Virus record (IMG/VR): IMGVR_UViG_2529292985_000032 | Origin: a virus | Lineage: Duplodnaviria; Heunggongvirae; Uroviricota; Caudoviricetes | DNA length: 41,694 bases | Strand: one strand, 5' to 3' | Shown: positions 24,454 to 35,895 of the stretch, piece by piece | Layout: every line of letters begins with the position of its first letter | How positions within the stretch are numbered: position 1 is the stretch's first letter | Translations under genes and position numbers: made by a program | Notes under the pieces: model-generated | Databases searched by the model: none | Told to the model about the DNA's origin: nothing | What the model saw: only the letters and a program-made list of their open reading frames with translations

Positions 24454-24746
24454 TCCTGTTCACTGGCCTCTTTGGCCATCTTCAAATACTGTTCAGGGCA
24501 ATGCGCCATAACGCGCTGAAACAGTTCCAGCGCCAGATTGCGTTGCCCCTCATTAAATGCCATTGCCATAGCGTCCATCGGTGAGATAGCGGAAAACACA
24601 CGGCCTTTCTCCAGCACCGACCATACAACGCGACGCCCCTGTTCACTGCTCATGACAAAGCGAATGTCATCAATTTCACGCTGCGCCATGTCACGTTGCT
24701 TACGGGCGTTTTCTTCTTTCAGTTGATCGTCTTCGTAATCTGTCAT
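24450..24746 (-). CDS. Hypothetical small acidic head-module protein
   Basis: 98 aa, translationally coupled between portal and scaffold genes. Confidence 0.5.
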   Translation of the reverse strand: MTDYEDDQLKEENARKQRDMAQREIDDIRFVMSSEQGRRVVWSVLEKGRVFSAISPMDAMAMAFNEGQRNLALELFQRVMAHCPEQYLKMAKEASEQE

Positions 24747-26422
24747 TGTGATTGCCCACCCTGACCACTAACTGCATTCGCCATAGCTGACAAAACACTC
24801 GGATCCGAAGTTTTAGCTTCGCTTAGCGTCTTGGCACCCTGTGCCGCCGCCATCCCCATCGCCATCATTTGTTGCTGCTGTTGTTGCTGTGCCCGTTGCT
24901 GGCGAGCCTGCTCAACCTGTTCCTGCGGAACAATGACGGTTGGAGACACTCCGGACATATCAGCGAATGCATCGATCGCCTGATCAACGTTGAGTTTGTC
25001 GAGAGCTTCTGGTTTCGCTTGCGCAAGTTGACCAATGAAGTTGACCGTAGACGCCAGACTGGACAGGCCGATAGACTTCTGCGCCTGAGCCATGACGGAA
25101 ATGTATTCGACCTTCAGGGGCATACCTTCCATCGCGTCAGGCGGTGGCGGCAGCATGTTTTTACGCACCATCATCGAGAAAGCGCGGTCAATGAGAGGAT
25201 TAAGACATTCGTCGTTCAGACGCTCCAGAACCGGCCCCAACATCAGAAGTTTTTCTTCTTTCATTTCGATCACCGCTTCAACAGGCATCGAGCGGGTATT
25301 GATGTTCTGCAACATCATGAACAGATCGACAAAGTAGGCGCTGTTAATGATTTGGCGAGTGTCCTGAATGTCTGCTACCAGATCTGCTGTACTGGGGTTA
25401 ACCAGATAAGCAGGCCTGAAACCATCCTGACCAGTAATCTGATCGATATACGTGATGTCGCCAGGAAGAAGGGAGGCGCGCTGATTCTTGAGGGAAGTCG
25501 GAGCAACCATCGGCGGATTGGTGGCTTTATCAATCAACTGCGACTTGCGCTTCTGGAGAAGCTGCAATGCCTTAACAGGTCCAAGCGCCAGCATACCCGG
25601 GCATGATGATCCATAAACATCTTCGCCGTTAACTTCCCAGCGCGGAGCCATAATTGGAAACTCATCGAATCCGGACTCACGCAACAACTTGTCGTTATCG
25701 CCACCAACCTCGTAATAAACCGATTTGAATGGCTTGTTCTTGCTATCCAGCTTCGATGTATCGCGGTCAATGTTCGGGTAAACCGAATGCATCACTTCAA
25801 TCCACTTCTCGTAGGTGCCGCTTTCCCACATGCTTTTTACGGATTCGCTGACGTTATTTAGCCCGAACTCCTGAACAAGCTGACGAACAGTCATAGAGAA
25901 CTTGCGAAAACAGGTGTCCACACTGCCACGAGGTGAGTTAGCCAGGTAGTAACTGCCTATCGGGAATGGCATTGTGCGAATGATGTCCTCGTCATCCTCC
26001 AGCACTGCCATTGCACCAGTGCTGTATGTGCCGAGGCTTCCGTATAACTGCGGCAGAGACTGATAGAGATTCGACTCATTAAACATATCGTTCATGCGGT
26101 TCTGCACCGCCTCAAGCCACAACTTAACAGGGCCATAATCCATCATTTCAGGATCTGGCGTAGCCAGGCGAAACCACGGACGCGCGGGGCTTGTGATGCC
26201 TGACATCATGCCGCTGGCGAGAGTGCGCGCCGCCATAGTCCCGGTCGAATCAATAATGCGTGTATTGCGTCGATCGTTACGGTTGACCTCAGAAGTCAGA
26301 AAGCGGGAACCACGCGGGTTGATGTAATCACTCAACTCGCGCCAGTGCGGCTCGAACGACTGACGCTCGCTTTCAAGTTGTGCGAACTGTTTGTTCAATC
26401 GCTCTTTAGTTGTTTCCGCCAT
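24743..26422 (-). CDS. Portal protein
   Basis: 559 aa; position after terminase; Q-rich C-terminal tail. Confidence 0.85.
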   Translation of the reverse strand: MAETTKERLNKQFAQLESERQSFEPHWRELSDYINPRGSRFLTSEVNRNDRRNTRIIDSTGTMAARTLASGMMSGITSPARPWFRLATPDPEMMDYGPVKLWLEAVQNRMNDMFNESNLYQSLPQLYGSLGTYSTGAMAVLEDDEDIIRTMPFPIGSYYLANSPRGSVDTCFRKFSMTVRQLVQEFGLNNVSESVKSMWESGTYEKWIEVMHSVYPNIDRDTSKLDSKNKPFKSVYYEVGGDNDKLLRESGFDEFPIMAPRWEVNGEDVYGSSCPGMLALGPVKALQLLQKRKSQLIDKATNPPMVAPTSLKNQRASLLPGDITYIDQITGQDGFRPAYLVNPSTADLVADIQDTRQIINSAYFVDLFMMLQNINTRSMPVEAVIEMKEEKLLMLGPVLERLNDECLNPLIDRAFSMMVRKNMLPPPPDAMEGMPLKVEYISVMAQAQKSIGLSSLASTVNFIGQLAQAKPEALDKLNVDQAIDAFADMSGVSPTVIVPQEQVEQARQQRAQQQQQQQMMAMGMAAAQGAKTLSEAKTSDPSVLSAMANAVSGQGGQSQ

Positions 26423-26436
26423 TTCAATGACTCCGG

Positions 26437-26643
26437 TTACTGACCAAGTAGCGTTTTACCGCTGGTATTAGCGGTTGATGTGTCGCCCTGAGAACCGGTA
26501 AGCAGCGTAGAACTACGACCAGCAGCAGCGCGACGGCGACGAGTTTCTTCGTCGCGGGCATCAACAACGGCGGCATCCTGCTCCTGTGGTGCTGCCTGAA
26601 CTTCTGGTGTTGCAGGCACTGATGGTGAGCTACCCATGCACAT
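26437..26643 (-). CDS. Hypothetical small hydrophilic protein upstream of portal
   Basis: 68 aa, A/S/T/E/R-rich; 14-nt gap to portal start; overlapping 79-aa alternative ORF less protein-like. Confidence 0.4.
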   Translation of the reverse strand: MCMGSSPSVPATPEVQAAPQEQDAAVVDARDEETRRRRAAAGRSSTLLTGSQGDTSTANTSGKTLLGQ

Positions 26644-26711
26644 ATCAATGACTCCGTACGCAATTAAATTATTACCAATTTAACCACATATGATTTATTT
26701 ATCGTAGTCGG

Positions 26712-26748
26712 TTGACATTTAACGCACGAATTATTACCTTTCAGGTAA
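26712..26748 (+). promoter_or_regulatory. Promoter-like TTGACA followed by operator palindrome TTACC-TTTCA-GGTAA (26734-26748)
   Basis: Consensus -35 hexamer at 26712-26717; palindrome overlaps the expected -10 region; upstream of noncoding leader and tRNA. Confidence 0.45.
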
Positions 26749-27070
26749 CCAAAAAGTTCATTCCGGTTACTAACCTGACTGGCTTGTCGTTAAATTGAAC
26801 AGGTGGAGTGAGCTTTTATTTTGAGCAGTACGGCGTATGGCACATGCGCCGATAGCGGCCTGGATACGTTTAAGGGGCACCCTCCCTTGCTCGGGCAAAC
26901 GAACCAGGTAGCCGGAATGTGCAAGTCGAGCGGTTTTATTCCGCGCACGGGGATTCACCATCCCGGCGATTCGGTGTGACGCCTCGGAAGAGACGAGGGT
27001 ACAACGATGAGAGCATTTATGGAGCCGCGACAAAGTGTGGTGCCTTAACAGGCTAAGTGCTCTCAGCGTT

Positions 27071-27147
27071 GTGGCATTAGCTCAGTCGGACAGAGCAACC
27101 GCCTTCTAAGCGGTTGGTCGCAGGTTCGAATCCTGCATGCCACGCCA
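27071..27147 (+). tRNA. tRNA-Arg, anticodon UCU (27105-27107), decodes AGA
   Basis: 77 nt cloverleaf: acceptor GTGGCAT/ATGCCAC, D-arm GCTC/GAGC, anticodon stem ACCGC/GCGGT with loop CTTCTAA, T-arm GCAGG-TTCGAAT-CCTGC, discriminator G and encoded CCA. Confidence 0.9.
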
Positions 27148-27190
27148 GAATCACGCCTAAGGACCGTGATGCCAGAAGTTCCAGTGCTTG

Positions 27191-27233
27191 GCGGTGATGG
27201 TTTCCCTTGAAGGACTATCACCGCACTTTTTAC
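27191..27233 (+). terminator. Terminator-like hairpin downstream of the tRNA
   Basis: GCGGTGAT ... ATCACCGC 8-bp stem with structured loop, followed by ACTTTTTAC. Confidence 0.45.
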
Positions 27234-27309
27234 AGCAGGACGCCATTGCGATGACTTCATGCTGTAAACCCGTACATCCACGGAAGGAAGAACTCATTGC
27301 TTCCAGTTC

Positions 27310-27333
27310 GCCCGGTTCGCCGGGCATTTTTTT
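27310..27333 (+). terminator. Rho-independent terminator just upstream of the 27345 gene
   Basis: GCCCGG-TTCG-CCGGGC then ATTTTTTT; the gene's Shine-Dalgarno follows immediately. Confidence 0.65.
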
Positions 27334-27344
27334 AAGGTGAGATT

Positions 27345-27701
27345 ATGAACGACCAGCAAATCGAAAAAGAAATCGTTGAGAAAGGCAAAACGGCACCGCG
27401 AGTTACGCCTCAATATATCGAAAGCATCATTCTTGAAGAGCATTTCTTTACTGCTTATGACGGCATTCGTGCCGCCAATATGGGCGTTGGCGATTCATGG
27501 ACAGCGCATAACTCTACAGACCTCCTGACTTTCTGCGTACTGGTGCTGAAGAATGGCTTCACCGTCACCGGAGAGAGTGCCTGTGCAAGCCAGGAAAACT
27601 TTGATGCAGAAATTGGTCGGAAGATTGCCCGGCAGAATGCTGTAAACAAAATCTGGATGCTCGAAGGTTACTTGCTGAAGCAGAAGCTAAGCGAGCAATA
27701 A
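27345..27701 (+). CDS. Conserved hypothetical phage accessory protein (118 aa)
   Basis: AAGGTGAG Shine-Dalgarno 4 nt before ATG; terminator downstream; plus-strand unit embedded between terminase and portal. Confidence 0.7.
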   Translation: MNDQQIEKEIVEKGKTAPRVTPQYIESIILEEHFFTAYDGIRAANMGVGDSWTAHNSTDLLTFCVLVLKNGFTVTGESACASQENFDAEIGRKIARQNAVNKIWMLEGYLLKQKLSEQ

Positions 27702-27704
27702 CAC

Positions 27705-27718
27705 CGTGACATGTCACA
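27705..27718. repeat. 14-bp element CGTGACATGTCACA (palindromic core), copy 2
   Basis: Identical 14-mer also at 29970-29983; this copy lies 3 nt after the 27345 gene stop and just downstream of terminase large stop. Confidence 0.8.
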
Positions 27719-27721
27719 AAC

Positions 27722-27750
27722 AGCCAGCCGATGAGCTGGCTTTGTTTTAT
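27722..27750 (+). terminator. Rho-independent terminator
   Basis: AGCCAGC-CGATGA-GCTGGCT followed by TTGTTTTAT. Confidence 0.6.
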
Positions 27751-27791
27751 CCTCGCCAGAGGATATCAGCAGCATTATCCCCTCCAACGGA

Positions 27792-29234
27792 TTAAGCATA
27801 GGGATCGTAATCTGTGATGGCCTTGCCTTGCTGGTTCTGCTGCCCGGGAATTCGCAGACGCTTCGACACAGGGAACGCAAACGTCAGCAGTAGCGCATCG
27901 CCTTTACCCGGCGAACGCCCAAGCCGCTCCTTGATATCTTCCTTCGGTTCGATAACGATTTTACCGTCCACTCGAACTTTGTACTCAGCCGCCGACAGGT
28001 CGTCCGCTGTTTCCTGGTCATCAAGCATGCCACCCAGCCTCAGCCATGTCTTGCATGAGATGAACATCTCCCCACGCTTGTTGAGCATCTGCGGGTCAGT
28101 AGACGCGCCACCGAACGGAACAAGTTGCCATGTACGACCCCAGCCGTCACCGATTGACTTCAGACCAGTTCCGTAACCGAAGTCGATGAACACTGCGTCA
28201 GCCTGGTACTGGTCTTCAAAGTCAGCGATACGCTTCGCCATAATCAGATCGTCAGTGGTCTTGTTGCCAGTCCACAGCACCTTACTGTGCAGCCCCTGCC
28301 GCAGGTATATCACAGCGTCATCAACGCCGGAGTATGCCGGGTCAACGCCGATTATCACCGGAGCATGTGCAACCTGCGCAGCGGTTACCACCCGTTTCAT
28401 TGCCTCGTCAGTAAGGCCAGTAGGGATAAACTGCAATTCAGATGCATCCGGGAATATGCCGCGCACACGGATTTTAACGAAGTCGCTGTCTTCCCCGTAG
28501 TCATCAACCCATTTCTGCAACTGCTGTTTGTTAGTGCCTTCCACCGTCCGGCTGTCAATCTGCGCACACTTCCAGCGGTGTTTGTACTTGCGGAAACATT
28601 CACGGAAACGCCCGGTGTTACGCGTCGGGTTTCCGAACGCCACCCAGATAATCTCAGTGTCTTCGTCCGTTAGCGCACCCTCGGCAACTTCCCACACCAG
28701 ATCCGCAATGTTCGACGCTTCATCGAATACCACGATGATGCGTTTGCGCTCGTTGTGTAGTCCGGCGAATGCCTCAGTGTTGTGCTCAGACCAGGGGATT
28801 GCGTCAGCTCGCCACCGCTTGTCGTGCCCAGGGTCATTGCTGTACATCGCGGTAGCGGTACAGGTAAACCAGTCTTTCGTGATAGCAAGGTTCGACCACT
28901 TGATAATTTCCGGCCAAGTCTTCGTTCGTAGCTGGTTGTCGGTGTTGGCGGTCACCACGACCTTACAATCCTCGCAAGTGGACATGCCCCAGTTGATCAG
29001 CATTGAGATGAATGCGGATTTACCAATACCGTGACCCGAAGCACGTGCCAGCATAAGCGGCTGATAGCGCGTCTCTGGATTCTGCAGGTGATCACGTATC
29101 TCTCGGAACGCATCAGCCTGCCACTGACGTGGACCGGTGGCATGTGCTAATTCAGTCCCCTCTTCCCCCCACGGGAACGCATAGAGGGCATAGCCAAGCG
29201 GATCGTGAGTGAACCCTGCAATATCCTCGATCAA
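27792..29234 (-). CDS. Terminase large subunit
   Basis: 480 aa; ATPase-like N-part and nuclease-like C-part; follows terminase small gene. Confidence 0.9.
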   Translation of the reverse strand: MIEDIAGFTHDPLGYALYAFPWGEEGTELAHATGPRQWQADAFREIRDHLQNPETRYQPLMLARASGHGIGKSAFISMLINWGMSTCEDCKVVVTANTDNQLRTKTWPEIIKWSNLAITKDWFTCTATAMYSNDPGHDKRWRADAIPWSEHNTEAFAGLHNERKRIIVVFDEASNIADLVWEVAEGALTDEDTEIIWVAFGNPTRNTGRFRECFRKYKHRWKCAQIDSRTVEGTNKQQLQKWVDDYGEDSDFVKIRVRGIFPDASELQFIPTGLTDEAMKRVVTAAQVAHAPVIIGVDPAYSGVDDAVIYLRQGLHSKVLWTGNKTTDDLIMAKRIADFEDQYQADAVFIDFGYGTGLKSIGDGWGRTWQLVPFGGASTDPQMLNKRGEMFISCKTWLRLGGMLDDQETADDLSAAEYKVRVDGKIVIEPKEDIKERLGRSPGKGDALLLTFAFPVSKRLRIPGQQNQQGKAITDYDPYA

Positions 29235-33487: not shown

Positions 33488-33502
33488 TTACCCCTGAGGT
33501 AA
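33488..33502. promoter_or_regulatory. Operator-like palindrome TTACC-CCTGA-GGTAA
   Basis: Perfect half-sites; abuts the 33484 start. Confidence 0.45.
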
Positions 33503-33549
33503 TTAAAAACCACATAAGACACGAAATCAATAGATTTTAGAATATCTCA

Positions 33550-33564
33550 TTACCCAGAAGGTAA
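33550..33564. promoter_or_regulatory. Operator-like palindrome TTACC-CAGAA-GGTAA
   Basis: Perfect half-sites; 62 bp from the previous site. Confidence 0.45.
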
Positions 33565-35495: not shown

Positions 35496-35510
35496 TTACC
35501 TTTAAGGTGC
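35496..35510. promoter_or_regulatory. Operator-like palindrome TTACC-TTTAA-GGTGC
   Basis: Left half perfect, right half 3/5. Confidence 0.35.
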
Positions 35511-35520
35511 GAATAGATAT

Positions 35521-35544
35521 GAAAAGACCGCCGGATGGCGGTCT
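35521..35544 (-). terminator. tR1-like terminator between Cro-like gene and downstream operon
   Basis: AGACCGCC-GGAT-GGCGGTCT hairpin; minus-strand downstream sequence TTTCATATC. Confidence 0.5.
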
Positions 35545-35565
35545 ACAGAGGTTTGTGGCTGGATA

Positions 35566-35796
35566 TCATGAGTAGAAGAAGTATGCCAGTTCTGCTTTTG
35601 AGCGCAGCCATTGTCTTGTTTTACAGGCTTTAAAAAGCCCATTCATCAATACTTTACCTGTCATTTTGCGCTTACCTGTTAAGTGAGTCTGGATATAGTG
35701 ACTCGTCGTTCCGGCTTCCTGTGCGAAGGCTTCACGCTCATCCGGAGTAAGTGCAAGCCAGTGCTTTTTGAAATCGAAATGTCCGTTATCGCTCAT
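35566..35796 (-). CDS. Cro-like early regulator (by position)
   Basis: 76-aa ORF divergent from the repressor gene across the operator cluster. Confidence 0.5.
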   Translation of the reverse strand: MSDNGHFDFKKHWLALTPDEREAFAQEAGTTSHYIQTHLTGKRKMTGKVLMNGLFKACKTRQWLRSKAELAYFFYS

Positions 35797-35832
35797 AGCT
35801 ATTGCCTGATATTTATTTCAGATAATAAATAT

Positions 35833-35895
35833 TCACCCATAAGGTAACAAAAATCAAGGATAGTTACCTATGGGGTGCATTTACCTGTTGGGTAA
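35833..35895. promoter_or_regulatory. Immunity-region operator cluster: three tandem 15-bp sites
   Basis: TCACC-CATAA-GGTAA (35833-35847), TTACC-TATGG-GGTGC (35864-35878), TTACC-TGTTG-GGTAA (35881-35895) between divergent Cro-like and repressor genes. Confidence 0.65.

Follow-up and report, generated by a model that had tools for sequence, protein, structure and literature searches.

Introduction

The tRNA cluster of the virulent phage T4 also yields the stable RNAs species 1 and 2, of ~120-140 nt, which are co-transcribed with the tRNAs and released by tRNA-processing enzymes, and phage tRNAs can counter anticodon nucleases. Among the large structured phage RNAs, GOLLD and ROOL often adjoin tRNAs, and GOLLD sometimes has a tRNA inside it (PMC12286853). 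We analysed a locus of this general kind in an epsilon15/phiV10-type (Uetakevirus) prophage, the 41,694-nt IMG/VR record IMGVR_UViG_2529292985_000032 (the whole stretch is called the window below), in which a tRNA-Arg(UCU) gene directly follows a ~240-nt stretch that we call domain 1. Comparison of the locus with its relatives strongly supports domain 1 as a structured RNA belonging to a family of its own, and suggests that domain 1, the tRNA, a trailer hairpin and a terminator together form one composite RNA gene.

Results

Structure and covariation of domain 1

An earlier account of the window, made from the letters alone (the sequence-only reading), had described ~320 nt of GC-rich sequence with no credible open reading frame (ORF) as a leader of the tRNA, which might encode a structured RNA. 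The interval, 26749-27070, is 322 nt long, with a GC content of 0.60 over 26829-27000, and its sole ORF is a minus-strand frame of 87 amino acids starting with TTG. A protein-coding interpretation was rejected; we regard the interval as non-coding because, across 30 relatives, the longest stop-free frame switches both frame and strand and the lengths are not kept to multiples of three (11/10/9 sequences in the three classes modulo 3).

In alignments of the relatives, two near-invariant blocks, TGGCACATG and the 19-mer GGTAGCCGGAATGTGCAAG, are parted by helices whose strands change together, and RNAalifold returned 49 pairs, of which 17-18 show compensatory changes. An explicit model of six helices and two pseudoknots was evaluated by counting pairs on an alignment of 30 diverse sequences (A4), with controls in which the pairing partners were slid and with 500 shuffles. 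The model pairs 95.9% of the cells, compared with 32-43% when partners were slid; 21 pairs carry changes on both sides, compared with 7-12; and the covariation score is 0.273, compared with at most 0.088. None of the 500 shuffles reached the value of the model by any of these three measures. The helices that covary are P1, the lower part of P2, P2a, P4, P6 and P7, and the guess that the leader is a structured RNA is thus strongly supported by covariation, the domain so defined extending over 26831-27075. RNAalifold, run on A4, preferred an alternative in which GCACAU pairs with AUGUGC in place of the P1 hairpin; this was set aside and helix P1 was kept because it covaries (12 G-C versus 16 A-U), the other pairing being treated as a pseudoknot (PK1).

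A covariance model, R1, which covers the 5' 155 positions, gave 141.7 bits in the window; phage P1, which lay outside its seed, scored 127.7 bits. The element is single in the 41.7-kb window, where the next best match has an E of 0.19. When loci were picked by the 5' motif, only five true members had even one mismatch in the 19-mer. A search of Rfam with the leader, both at gathering score and at E up to 10, matched no family; the invariant motifs, searched as DNA or RNA strings, appeared in no paper in a full-text literature search, and searches for work on phiV10/epsilon15, put or structured phage RNAs turned up no account of the element. As far as Rfam and the searched literature show, domain 1 is undescribed.

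Distribution of the RNA family

BLAST with the leader alone found copies, ~80% identical, that have no tRNA. They lie directly downstream of cI in lambdoid phages (2H10, mEp460, cdtI, Stx2c and Stx2a phages), and between trnI and ban in phages P1 and P7, the P1 element directly following trnI; further copies occur in Enterobacter phage Tyrion, Klebsiella phages and others. The family is carried by P1 and P7, lambdoid, Uetakevirus (epsilon15-like) and Lastavirus phages, and each phage record has it at one place. Most members lack an adjacent tRNA. That the 320 nt serve as a leader of the tRNA was therefore not borne out; they belong to a self-standing RNA family. (Loci of relatives are numbered with L, 2H10 being L002, P1 AF234173 L003, epsilon15 L004, Tyrion L006 and mEp460 L131.)

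The RNA is carried, on chromosomes and plasmids, by 1840 of 5426 complete E. coli genomes (~34%), where the annotation under the match is 'none' or the neighbouring tRNA only. The exact 19-mer is found in at least 120 IMG/VR loci. With one genome taken per species, exact matches comprised 24 stretches in 16 named Enterobacterales species, from the genera Escherichia, Citrobacter, Klebsiella, Enterobacter, Kosakonia, Kluyvera, Phytobacter, Buttiauxella and Pseudescherichia and from Erwinia dacicola, and two contigs of metagenome-assembled genomes (Oscillospiraceae, Bacillota), which are probably mis-binned. Matches in Synechococcus phages were taken as tRNA similarity only, as they disappeared once the query omitted the tRNA body.

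Coding sequences (CDS) for hypothetical proteins have been annotated across domain 1 in several phage records, among them mEp460 (2943-3311, minus strand) and Tyrion (2711-2872); they are probably spurious, because the family has no conserved frame. In epsilon15, all that is left of the domain is helix P1 and the start of P2 (2549-2612 of its locus, 31.8 bits), and the epsilon15 record places an 'RNaseIII mRNA processing' site over this remnant.

The tRNA slot and exchangeable modules

A census of 130 unique members gave 25 linked to a tRNA-Arg, 25 with an STnc100-like module, three with a T-arm, 34 others and 43 without the 3' strand of P7. Many members have a second domain (domain 2) downstream of an invariant stretch ending in CGUUGUGG. 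It reads, in order, GUGGUGA; a hairpin GCGCA-GGCUGA-UGCGC; a variable middle; a hairpin GCCGG-AGAUCAGCA-CCGGC; and CACCAC-A-ACC. Both hairpins covary, a loop-loop pairing GCUGAU/AUCAGC becomes GCUAAU/AUUAGC in one member, and some versions contain a canonical T-arm, such as CCCGG-UUCGAUU-CCGGG. In one relative (L116), the alignment of domain 2, its tail and its terminator spans the full STnc100 model (RF02076) at 45.8 bits, E 5e-7, the gathering score being 47, and a phage P1 copy matches at 33.4 bits; none of 15 loci reached the gathering score, and the window gave no STnc100 match even at E up to 10. The tRNA of the window shares its GUGG...CCAC ends with domain 2 and is followed by the same trailer hairpin and terminator T1 as tRNA-less members, lambdoid ones included. 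These alignments show that the tRNA occupies the slot that in relatives is filled by a cloverleaf-like, STnc100-related module; that domain 1 is linked to the STnc100 module, and also to a real tRNA, is a new finding.

Exchange is also seen at the tip of P7, between elements that are nearly identical otherwise. The window and L034 share the 5' domain and have different tips, while the window and 2H10 have a common tip and differ by ~17% elsewhere. The tips often hold T-arm-like hairpins, and that of L061 (384-430) holds a complete hammerhead type I core (CUGAAGA...GAAA...GUC, stems I-III). Its score of 28.7 bits falls short of the gathering score, 34; the E in an 851-nt stretch is 8.5e-5. P7-like modules stand in tandem at some loci. 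Within the 5' leader of the window, positions 26786-26826 (GTCGTTAAATTGAACAGGTGGAGTGAGCTTT) look like a degenerate remnant of another P7-type module, consisting of its variable tip and 3' strand; this stretch is common to Tyrion, PAT1 and epsilon15, and its counterpart in the alignment with L076 is the P7 insert and 3' strand of that locus (TTTGTCGTTAAATTTTGAAATGGCGGAGTGCGCTCC).

Several side observations concern the modules of relatives. In phage P1 (AF234173), P7-like stem modules whose tips resemble T-arms occur three times on the plus strand of 968-1680, between tRNA-Thr and tciA. The same stretch has a domain-2 module at 1298-1395 and, at 1558-1677, an STnc100 match below threshold (33.4 bits); its annotated genes, plp and upl on the minus strand, may be mis-annotated RNA modules. 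In the IMG/VR member L072, the variable middle of domain 2 (4600-4646) matches small-subunit rRNA models (positions 237-283 of the bacterial one) at 31-33 bits (E 1e-5 to 2e-6), and is either a mimic of an rRNA helix or a captured fragment. The minus strand of the 2H10 locus, at 775-963, upstream of an antirepressor gene, matches the C4 antisense RNA (82.8 bits) and isrK (55.4 bits), and is a P1-type immI module in a lambdoid phage. At the Tyrion locus, an int-alpA RNA match of 44 bits (gathering score 35.8) lies at 3708-3772, just 3' to a PF13876-like gene.

Promoter, operator and expression context

The promoter-like TTGACA and the operator noted in the sequence-only reading are both present, and a promoter at 26712-26740 is plausible from its sequence. 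A sigma-70 consensus scan of 26400-27900 did not call it, because its -10 element (TACCTT) is weak. The palindrome overlapping the -10 is very probably an operator of the prophage repressor, because the window contains 14 sites that fit the pattern TTACCTNNNAGGTAA with up to two mismatches, where 0.92 would be expected, and these sites are concentrated at 35.5-36.7 kb, in the immunity region; exact copies start at 8779, 26734 and 36593. Copies of the palindrome lie at 8779-8793, 33488-33564, 35496-35895 and 36593-36669. One exact copy adjoins a gene for a 749-amino-acid protein (6426-8675), which suggests that repressor control may reach beyond the immunity region.

In epsilon15, Tyrion, PAT1 and L067, too, the RNA is preceded by this promoter and palindrome. 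In 2H10, a strong pL-like promoter (TTGACA, 16 nt, CATAAT) follows the cI terminator and carries operator-like GTACC-N5-GATAC sites resembling those between cI and cro; from its placement, the RNA is the first thing transcribed from it. The phage P1 element lies within the C1-controlled ban operon, and in SopranoGao, L015 and L045 the RNA has its own promoter immediately upstream of helix P1. Wherever a promoter could be read from the sequence, then, the RNA appears to lie in a repressor-controlled early transcript, and this holds in at least three unrelated types of phage. Profiles of nine downstream proteins revealed no recurrent family, and no N-like family among them; in the lambdoid relatives the first downstream genes are either of unknown function or encode an excisionase.

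The tRNA-Arg gene and AGA codons

The canonical tRNA-Arg(UCU) noted in the sequence-only reading was recovered both by ARAGORN (anticodon tct at position 35) and by the Rfam tRNA model (RF00005), at 73.3 bits against a gathering score of 29. Its gene encodes a 3' end GCCA. It shares its D-arm, its anticodon loop CUUCUAA and its T-arm unchanged with K-12 argU, from which it differs by replacement of the acceptor and anticodon stems; from its sequence the tRNA is functional-looking and appears to be argU-derived. Nucleotides 1-2 fall within the predicted helix P7 of domain 1, and nucleotides 3-5 within the tentative pairing P3. Relatives keep the 5' GUGG of the tRNA even if changes in the 3' strand have left wobble pairs, which suggests an additional constraint from domain 1.

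The tRNA had been proposed to support translation of genes rich in AGA, provided that AGA is enriched in the prophage relative to its host, and this enrichment was found. E. coli WP3-S18-ESBL-09 has a prophage adjoining guaA whose RNA locus is an exact match to the window; its PGAP CDS contain 6.67 AGA per 1000 codons, whereas the flanking host genes hisS-guaA contain none in 3052 (p = 2e-8). The frequency is 7.2 per 1000 codons in the ORFs of the window and 12.2 per 1000 (34% of Arg codons) in its AT-rich genes, a set that includes 6426-8675. The codon-supply proposal thus passes the test set for it. The most highly expressed late genes lack AGA (see Discussion), so that codon supply can help only some genes. 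On its sequence, the tRNA plausibly relieves an AGA limitation for the AT-rich O-antigen-modification genes and for tail genes.

Terminators and the downstream gene

The trailer hairpin is retained after both tRNA and tRNA-like versions of the slot, with compensatory variants among the members (e.g. CACAC/GTGTG in L029). Two terminator-like hairpins had been noted; the terminator scan called both, and in other Uetakeviruses their pairing is maintained by compensatory changes. Among Uetakevirus and lambdoid members, e.g. 2H10 and L091, homologues of the first, T1, read GGCGGT-NNNNG...C-NNNN-ACCGCC-CTTTTTACA and show compensatory changes, so T1 appears to travel with the RNA family and likely marks the 3' end of the RNA gene. 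The second, T2, directly abuts the ribosome-binding site of a 118-amino-acid gene, and shows a compensatory change, GCCCAC/GTGGGC, in epsilon15 and PAT1.

The segment between the two hairpins, 27234-27309, had been suggested as a separate small RNA (sRNA), for which no evidence was found: it contains no clear promoter, no covarying stem (a candidate, ACAGCA/UGCUGU, is lost in epsilon15) and no Rfam match. It is highly conserved in epsilon15, Tyrion, PAT1, a Klebsiella phage and typing phage 9, tRNA-less members included, with the long invariant runs CGCCATTGCGATGAC and GCTGTAAACCC across Uetakeviruses with or without the tRNA, and it is probably the leader of the downstream gene, ending in T2. 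That gene is present as described, and is a member of PF13876 (Phage_gp49_66; E 2.7e-34); in L067 it has shrunk to an eight-codon remnant. An identity as DUF2829/Tad2 was rejected, DUF2829 fitting only a different gene in a Klebsiella relative.

The surrounding prophage

By BLAST, 26640-27340 is 97-98% identical to phiV10, to O157 typing phages 9 and 10, and to TL-2011b and ZX5. The AT-rich island at 3221-6136 has a GC content of 0.27-0.31, and the corresponding AT-rich stretch in the related prophage of WP3-S18-ESBL-09 carries the PGAP names acyltransferases and GDSL esterase; its genes are probably O-antigen modification genes. The hairpin at 27722-27748, which parts the plus-strand unit from the convergent terminase gene, is likely a terminator in both directions. 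In that case the gp3-portal-capsid genes would need a promoter of their own at ~26650-26750, divergent from the RNA promoter and sharing its operator. The features of the locus are collected in Table 1.

Table 1. Features of the RNA locus and its neighbours, in window coordinates; the structural elements of domain 1 are predictions.
Feature	Position	Strand	Basis or remark
Putative early promoter	TTGACA 26712-26717; 17-nt spacer; TACCTT 26735-40	+	Operator palindrome overlaps -10
Operator palindrome TTACCTTTCAGGTAA	26734-26748		
5' leader	26749-26830	+	
Domain 1, ~240 nt, predicted pseudoknotted	26831-27070, or to 27075	+	Alignment and covariation
Helix P1	26831-36/26846-51	+	Predicted, covaries
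Near-invariant block TGGCACATG	26838-46	+	
Pseudoknot PK1 (GCACAU/AUGUGC)	26840-45/26917-22	+	Predicted, invariant
Helix P2	26856-62/26905-14	+	Predicted, lower part covaries
Near-invariant 19-mer GGTAGCCGGAATGTGCAAG	26907-25	+	
Helix P4	26950-53/26961-64	+	Predicted, covaries
Pseudoknot PK2 (CACC/GGUG)	26956-59/26973-76	+	Predicted, one covarying pair
Helix P6	26982-86/26994-98	+	Predicted, covaries
Helix P7	27001-19/27054-72, variable tip 27020-27053	+	Predicted, covaries
tRNA-Arg(UCU), argU-like	27071-27147	+	ARAGORN, Rfam
Trailer hairpin AAUCACG-CCUAAGGAC-CGUGAUG	27149-27171	+	Kept after tRNA and tRNA-like versions
Terminator T1	27191-27233 (hairpin 27191-27224, 13-bp stem, then ACUUUUU)	+	Terminator scan
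Segment between T1 and T2	27234-27309	+	
Terminator-like T2	27310-27333 (GCCCGG-UUCG-CCGGGC 27310-27325, then AUUUUUUU; ATTTTTTT)	+	Terminator scan
118-amino-acid gene	27345-27701	+	PF13876, PHROG 322, PGAP 'Gp49 family protein'
Hairpin AGCCAGC-CGATGA-GCTGGCT	27722-27748		Terminator scan; A-run on one side, T-run on the other; between PF13876 gene and convergent terminase gene
Portal gene and gp3	24743-26643	-	ORF list, profile matches
Large terminase gene	27792-29234	Convergent with unit	Other side of the plus-strand RNA unit

Discussion

We favour, with somewhat better than even confidence, the view that 26831-27233 on the plus strand is a single composite RNA gene of ~400 nt whose domain 1 acts in trans as an early RNA. 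Its transcription would start at the promoter region 26712-26748, and would occur early after induction or infection, because the repressor operator overlaps the promoter; most transcripts would end at T1. The modules are, in order, domain 1, the tRNA-Arg in the cloverleaf slot (with the shared GUGG...CCAC closing stem), the trailer hairpin and T1. A cut by RNase P, presumably at 27070/27071, would release the tRNA, adding it to the scarce host argU pool for the benefit of AGA-rich early, tail and serotype-conversion genes, and would also free domain 1 as a stable RNA of ~240 nt. The folds of domain 1 and the tRNA would compete, because the last pairs of P7 use tRNA nucleotides 1-2 (1-5 with P3), and cleavage would accordingly remodel the 3' end of domain 1. 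Domain 1 would then work as an early effector in trans by binding a conserved host or phage factor, which is the weakest step of the proposal; a core of near-invariant nucleotides suggests that a partner is recognised specifically, and not that the RNA pairs with variable targets. The family as a whole behaves as a modular scaffold into which tRNA, tRNA-like, T-arm and even hammerhead cassettes are swapped.

The preference for a role in trans comes from the RNA having its own terminator, from the stand-alone case L067, from the presence of one copy per genome and from the swappable scaffold like that of GOLLD and ROOL. A more specific form of this proposal is that domain 1 is the core of a new class of modular early phage RNA effectors, RNA-only or hijacking a host protein, which might for example bind RNA polymerase or engage the tRNA-processing or tRNA-targeting machinery, with interchangeable cassettes. 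Such a class would compare in kind with GOLLD and ROOL and, being carried by phage P1, lambdoid prophages and a third of E. coli genomes, would lend itself to genetics at once; taken together, these are possibilities that we put forward tentatively, as something appreciably short of an even chance.

Several observations weigh against the view that we favour. PK1 and most of P2 never vary across A4 and, being invariant, are untestable by covariation, so that PK1 stays a proposal; the long-range pairing P3 (26925-27 with 27073-75) shows zero double changes, and we keep its pairing with tRNA nucleotides 3-5 as tentative, as it may merely reflect the acceptor stem. The z-score of the single-sequence fold is only -2.0. 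The promoter of the RNA gene, with its weak -10, was missed by the sigma-70 scan. The capsid, portal and terminase genes, which are highly expressed late, contain zero AGA codons. Epsilon15 itself is without most of domain 1 and without the tRNA, and therefore neither is essential. The trans-acting role of domain 1, moreover, draws on analogy, and in the lambdoid phages the RNA sits between a pL-like promoter and the early-left genes, where a role in cis would be natural.

Such a role is the main rival, though in our judgement an unlikely one: domain 1 would be a processive antiterminator like put of HK022, its nascent RNA binding the transcribing RNA polymerase just past the early promoter and carrying it through T1, T2 and later terminators. 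The pL-proximal position and the downstream terminators make it attractive. The RNA is promoter-proximal in early transcripts under repressor control in the three phage types, and in the lambdoid relatives it lies where nutL and N, or putL, would lie, with next genes that are not N-like. Terminator hairpins stand between the RNA and the next gene at many loci, most of which share the same T2-gene module and so are not independent, and T2, abutting the ribosome-binding site, leaves no room for a promoter; antitermination would permit expression of the PF13876 gene in the window and, in the lambdoid relatives, of the early-left operon. Cleavage by RNase P at the tRNA would not abolish a put-like activity, because put activity needs no tethering through the transcript (PMC9378689). 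Against this, R1 with its filters off found no match in 24.5-38 kb of HK022, which should cover both put sites, and ~240 nt with pseudoknots compares poorly with the ~70 nt and two stem-loops of put. The prophage has one copy of the RNA and no second copy for the rightward operon. T1 is conserved inside the cassette across contexts, which would be odd for an antiterminator; L067 has only the convergent terminase gene downstream; and the phage P1 copy is without helix P7 and 2.3 kb away from its promoter. Two loose resemblances were noted and not counted as evidence: within the P6 loop, GAAGAGA, is the GAAGA of the lambda nutL boxB, and the P7 3' strand UGCUCUUU of some relatives (the window has UGCUCUCA) is like the rrn boxA.

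We consider it improbable that the unit is an Hfq-dependent base-pairing prophage sRNA of the STnc100/PasD type with domain 1 as an extended 5' part. STnc100 and PasD are indeed related prophage sRNAs, PasD being known from Hfq RIL-seq (bioRxiv 10.64898/2026.05.13.724894), the 3' half of relatives without a tRNA matches STnc100, as described for L116, and the window retains the trailer and the U-tailed T1. In the window, however, the tRNA replaces the STnc100-like module, the relatives' matches all fall below the gathering score, and domain 1, with a core that hardly varies and is heavily paired, does not look like an sRNA that bears a seed.

A ligand-sensing riboswitch or attenuator controlling T1 or T2 would fit the complex pseudoknotted fold, the invariant nucleotides and the terminators downstream, but is very improbable, as the fold is separated from T1 by 77-200 nt of tRNA, cloverleaf module or other insert, the genes that follow are unrelated rather than conserved, and there is no alternative pairing with the terminator. 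That the 320 nt are a mere 5' leader or processing signal of the tRNA, with no further function, is scarcely credible even though they are contiguous with the tRNA and share its first nucleotides, and even though about one-fifth of sampled members are tRNA-linked, because most members have no tRNA, and tRNA-less ones in phage P1, lambdoid phages and a Lastavirus keep the fold and the core, with compensatory changes.

A domain of this size with two predicted pseudoknots has thus gone unannotated in about a third of the complete genomes of E. coli, although E. coli and phages P1 and lambda are the most closely studied of biological systems. Annotations of hypothetical proteins over domain 1, such as mEp460_037, and those of plp and upl in phage P1, may be wrong. 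The finding of a tRNA and an STnc100-like, tRNA-shaped module in the same slot suggests a possible origin for the STnc100/PasD type of prophage sRNA. If domain 1 is a functional RNA effector, it would offer a genetically tractable model for the large phage RNAs GOLLD and ROOL.

Comparison with known systems

Domain 1 may be likened, by description, to species 1 and 2 of T4, which are smaller and come from a virulent phage. With codon-compensating phage tRNAs, the locus has in common a bona fide tRNA-Arg(UCU) and the enrichment of AGA in the prophage relative to the host flank; unlike other phage tRNAs, this one is grafted into the slot of a larger RNA, and its acceptor stem is the family's GUGG junction, not that of argU. 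The put sites of HK022 (putL and putR) are, like domain 1, structured RNAs just 3' to an early repressor-controlled promoter and ahead of terminators, whereas domain 1 is non-homologous to them, three times larger and single copy, and has its own conserved terminator.

The module of the relatives aligns with the whole STnc100 model, including the closing stem UGGUG/CACCA, the internal hairpins and the terminator, and STnc100 and PasD are prophage-borne in E. coli and Salmonella, as is the present family. Unlike the family, STnc100 as modelled in Rfam lacks domain 1, and it has been described from late regions, in phages of the Stx and Fels-1 types.

GOLLD and ROOL resemble the family in being multi-helix pseudoknotted RNAs of phages and prophages, associated with tRNAs and built of a conserved core with variable parts; in the family, a tRNA is fused in 25 of the 130 members, and the phage P1 element follows trnI. 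Their Rfam models gave no match in the window (gathering score, and E up to 10) or in six relatives (E up to 0.1), and the window RNA differs in being smaller (~400 nt for the whole gene), in being carried by temperate phages of Enterobacterales and in lying in repressor-controlled early transcripts. The tRNA of the locus and its codon rationale are ordinary, and it is domain 1 that belongs, in kind, with the large structured phage RNAs associated with tRNAs.

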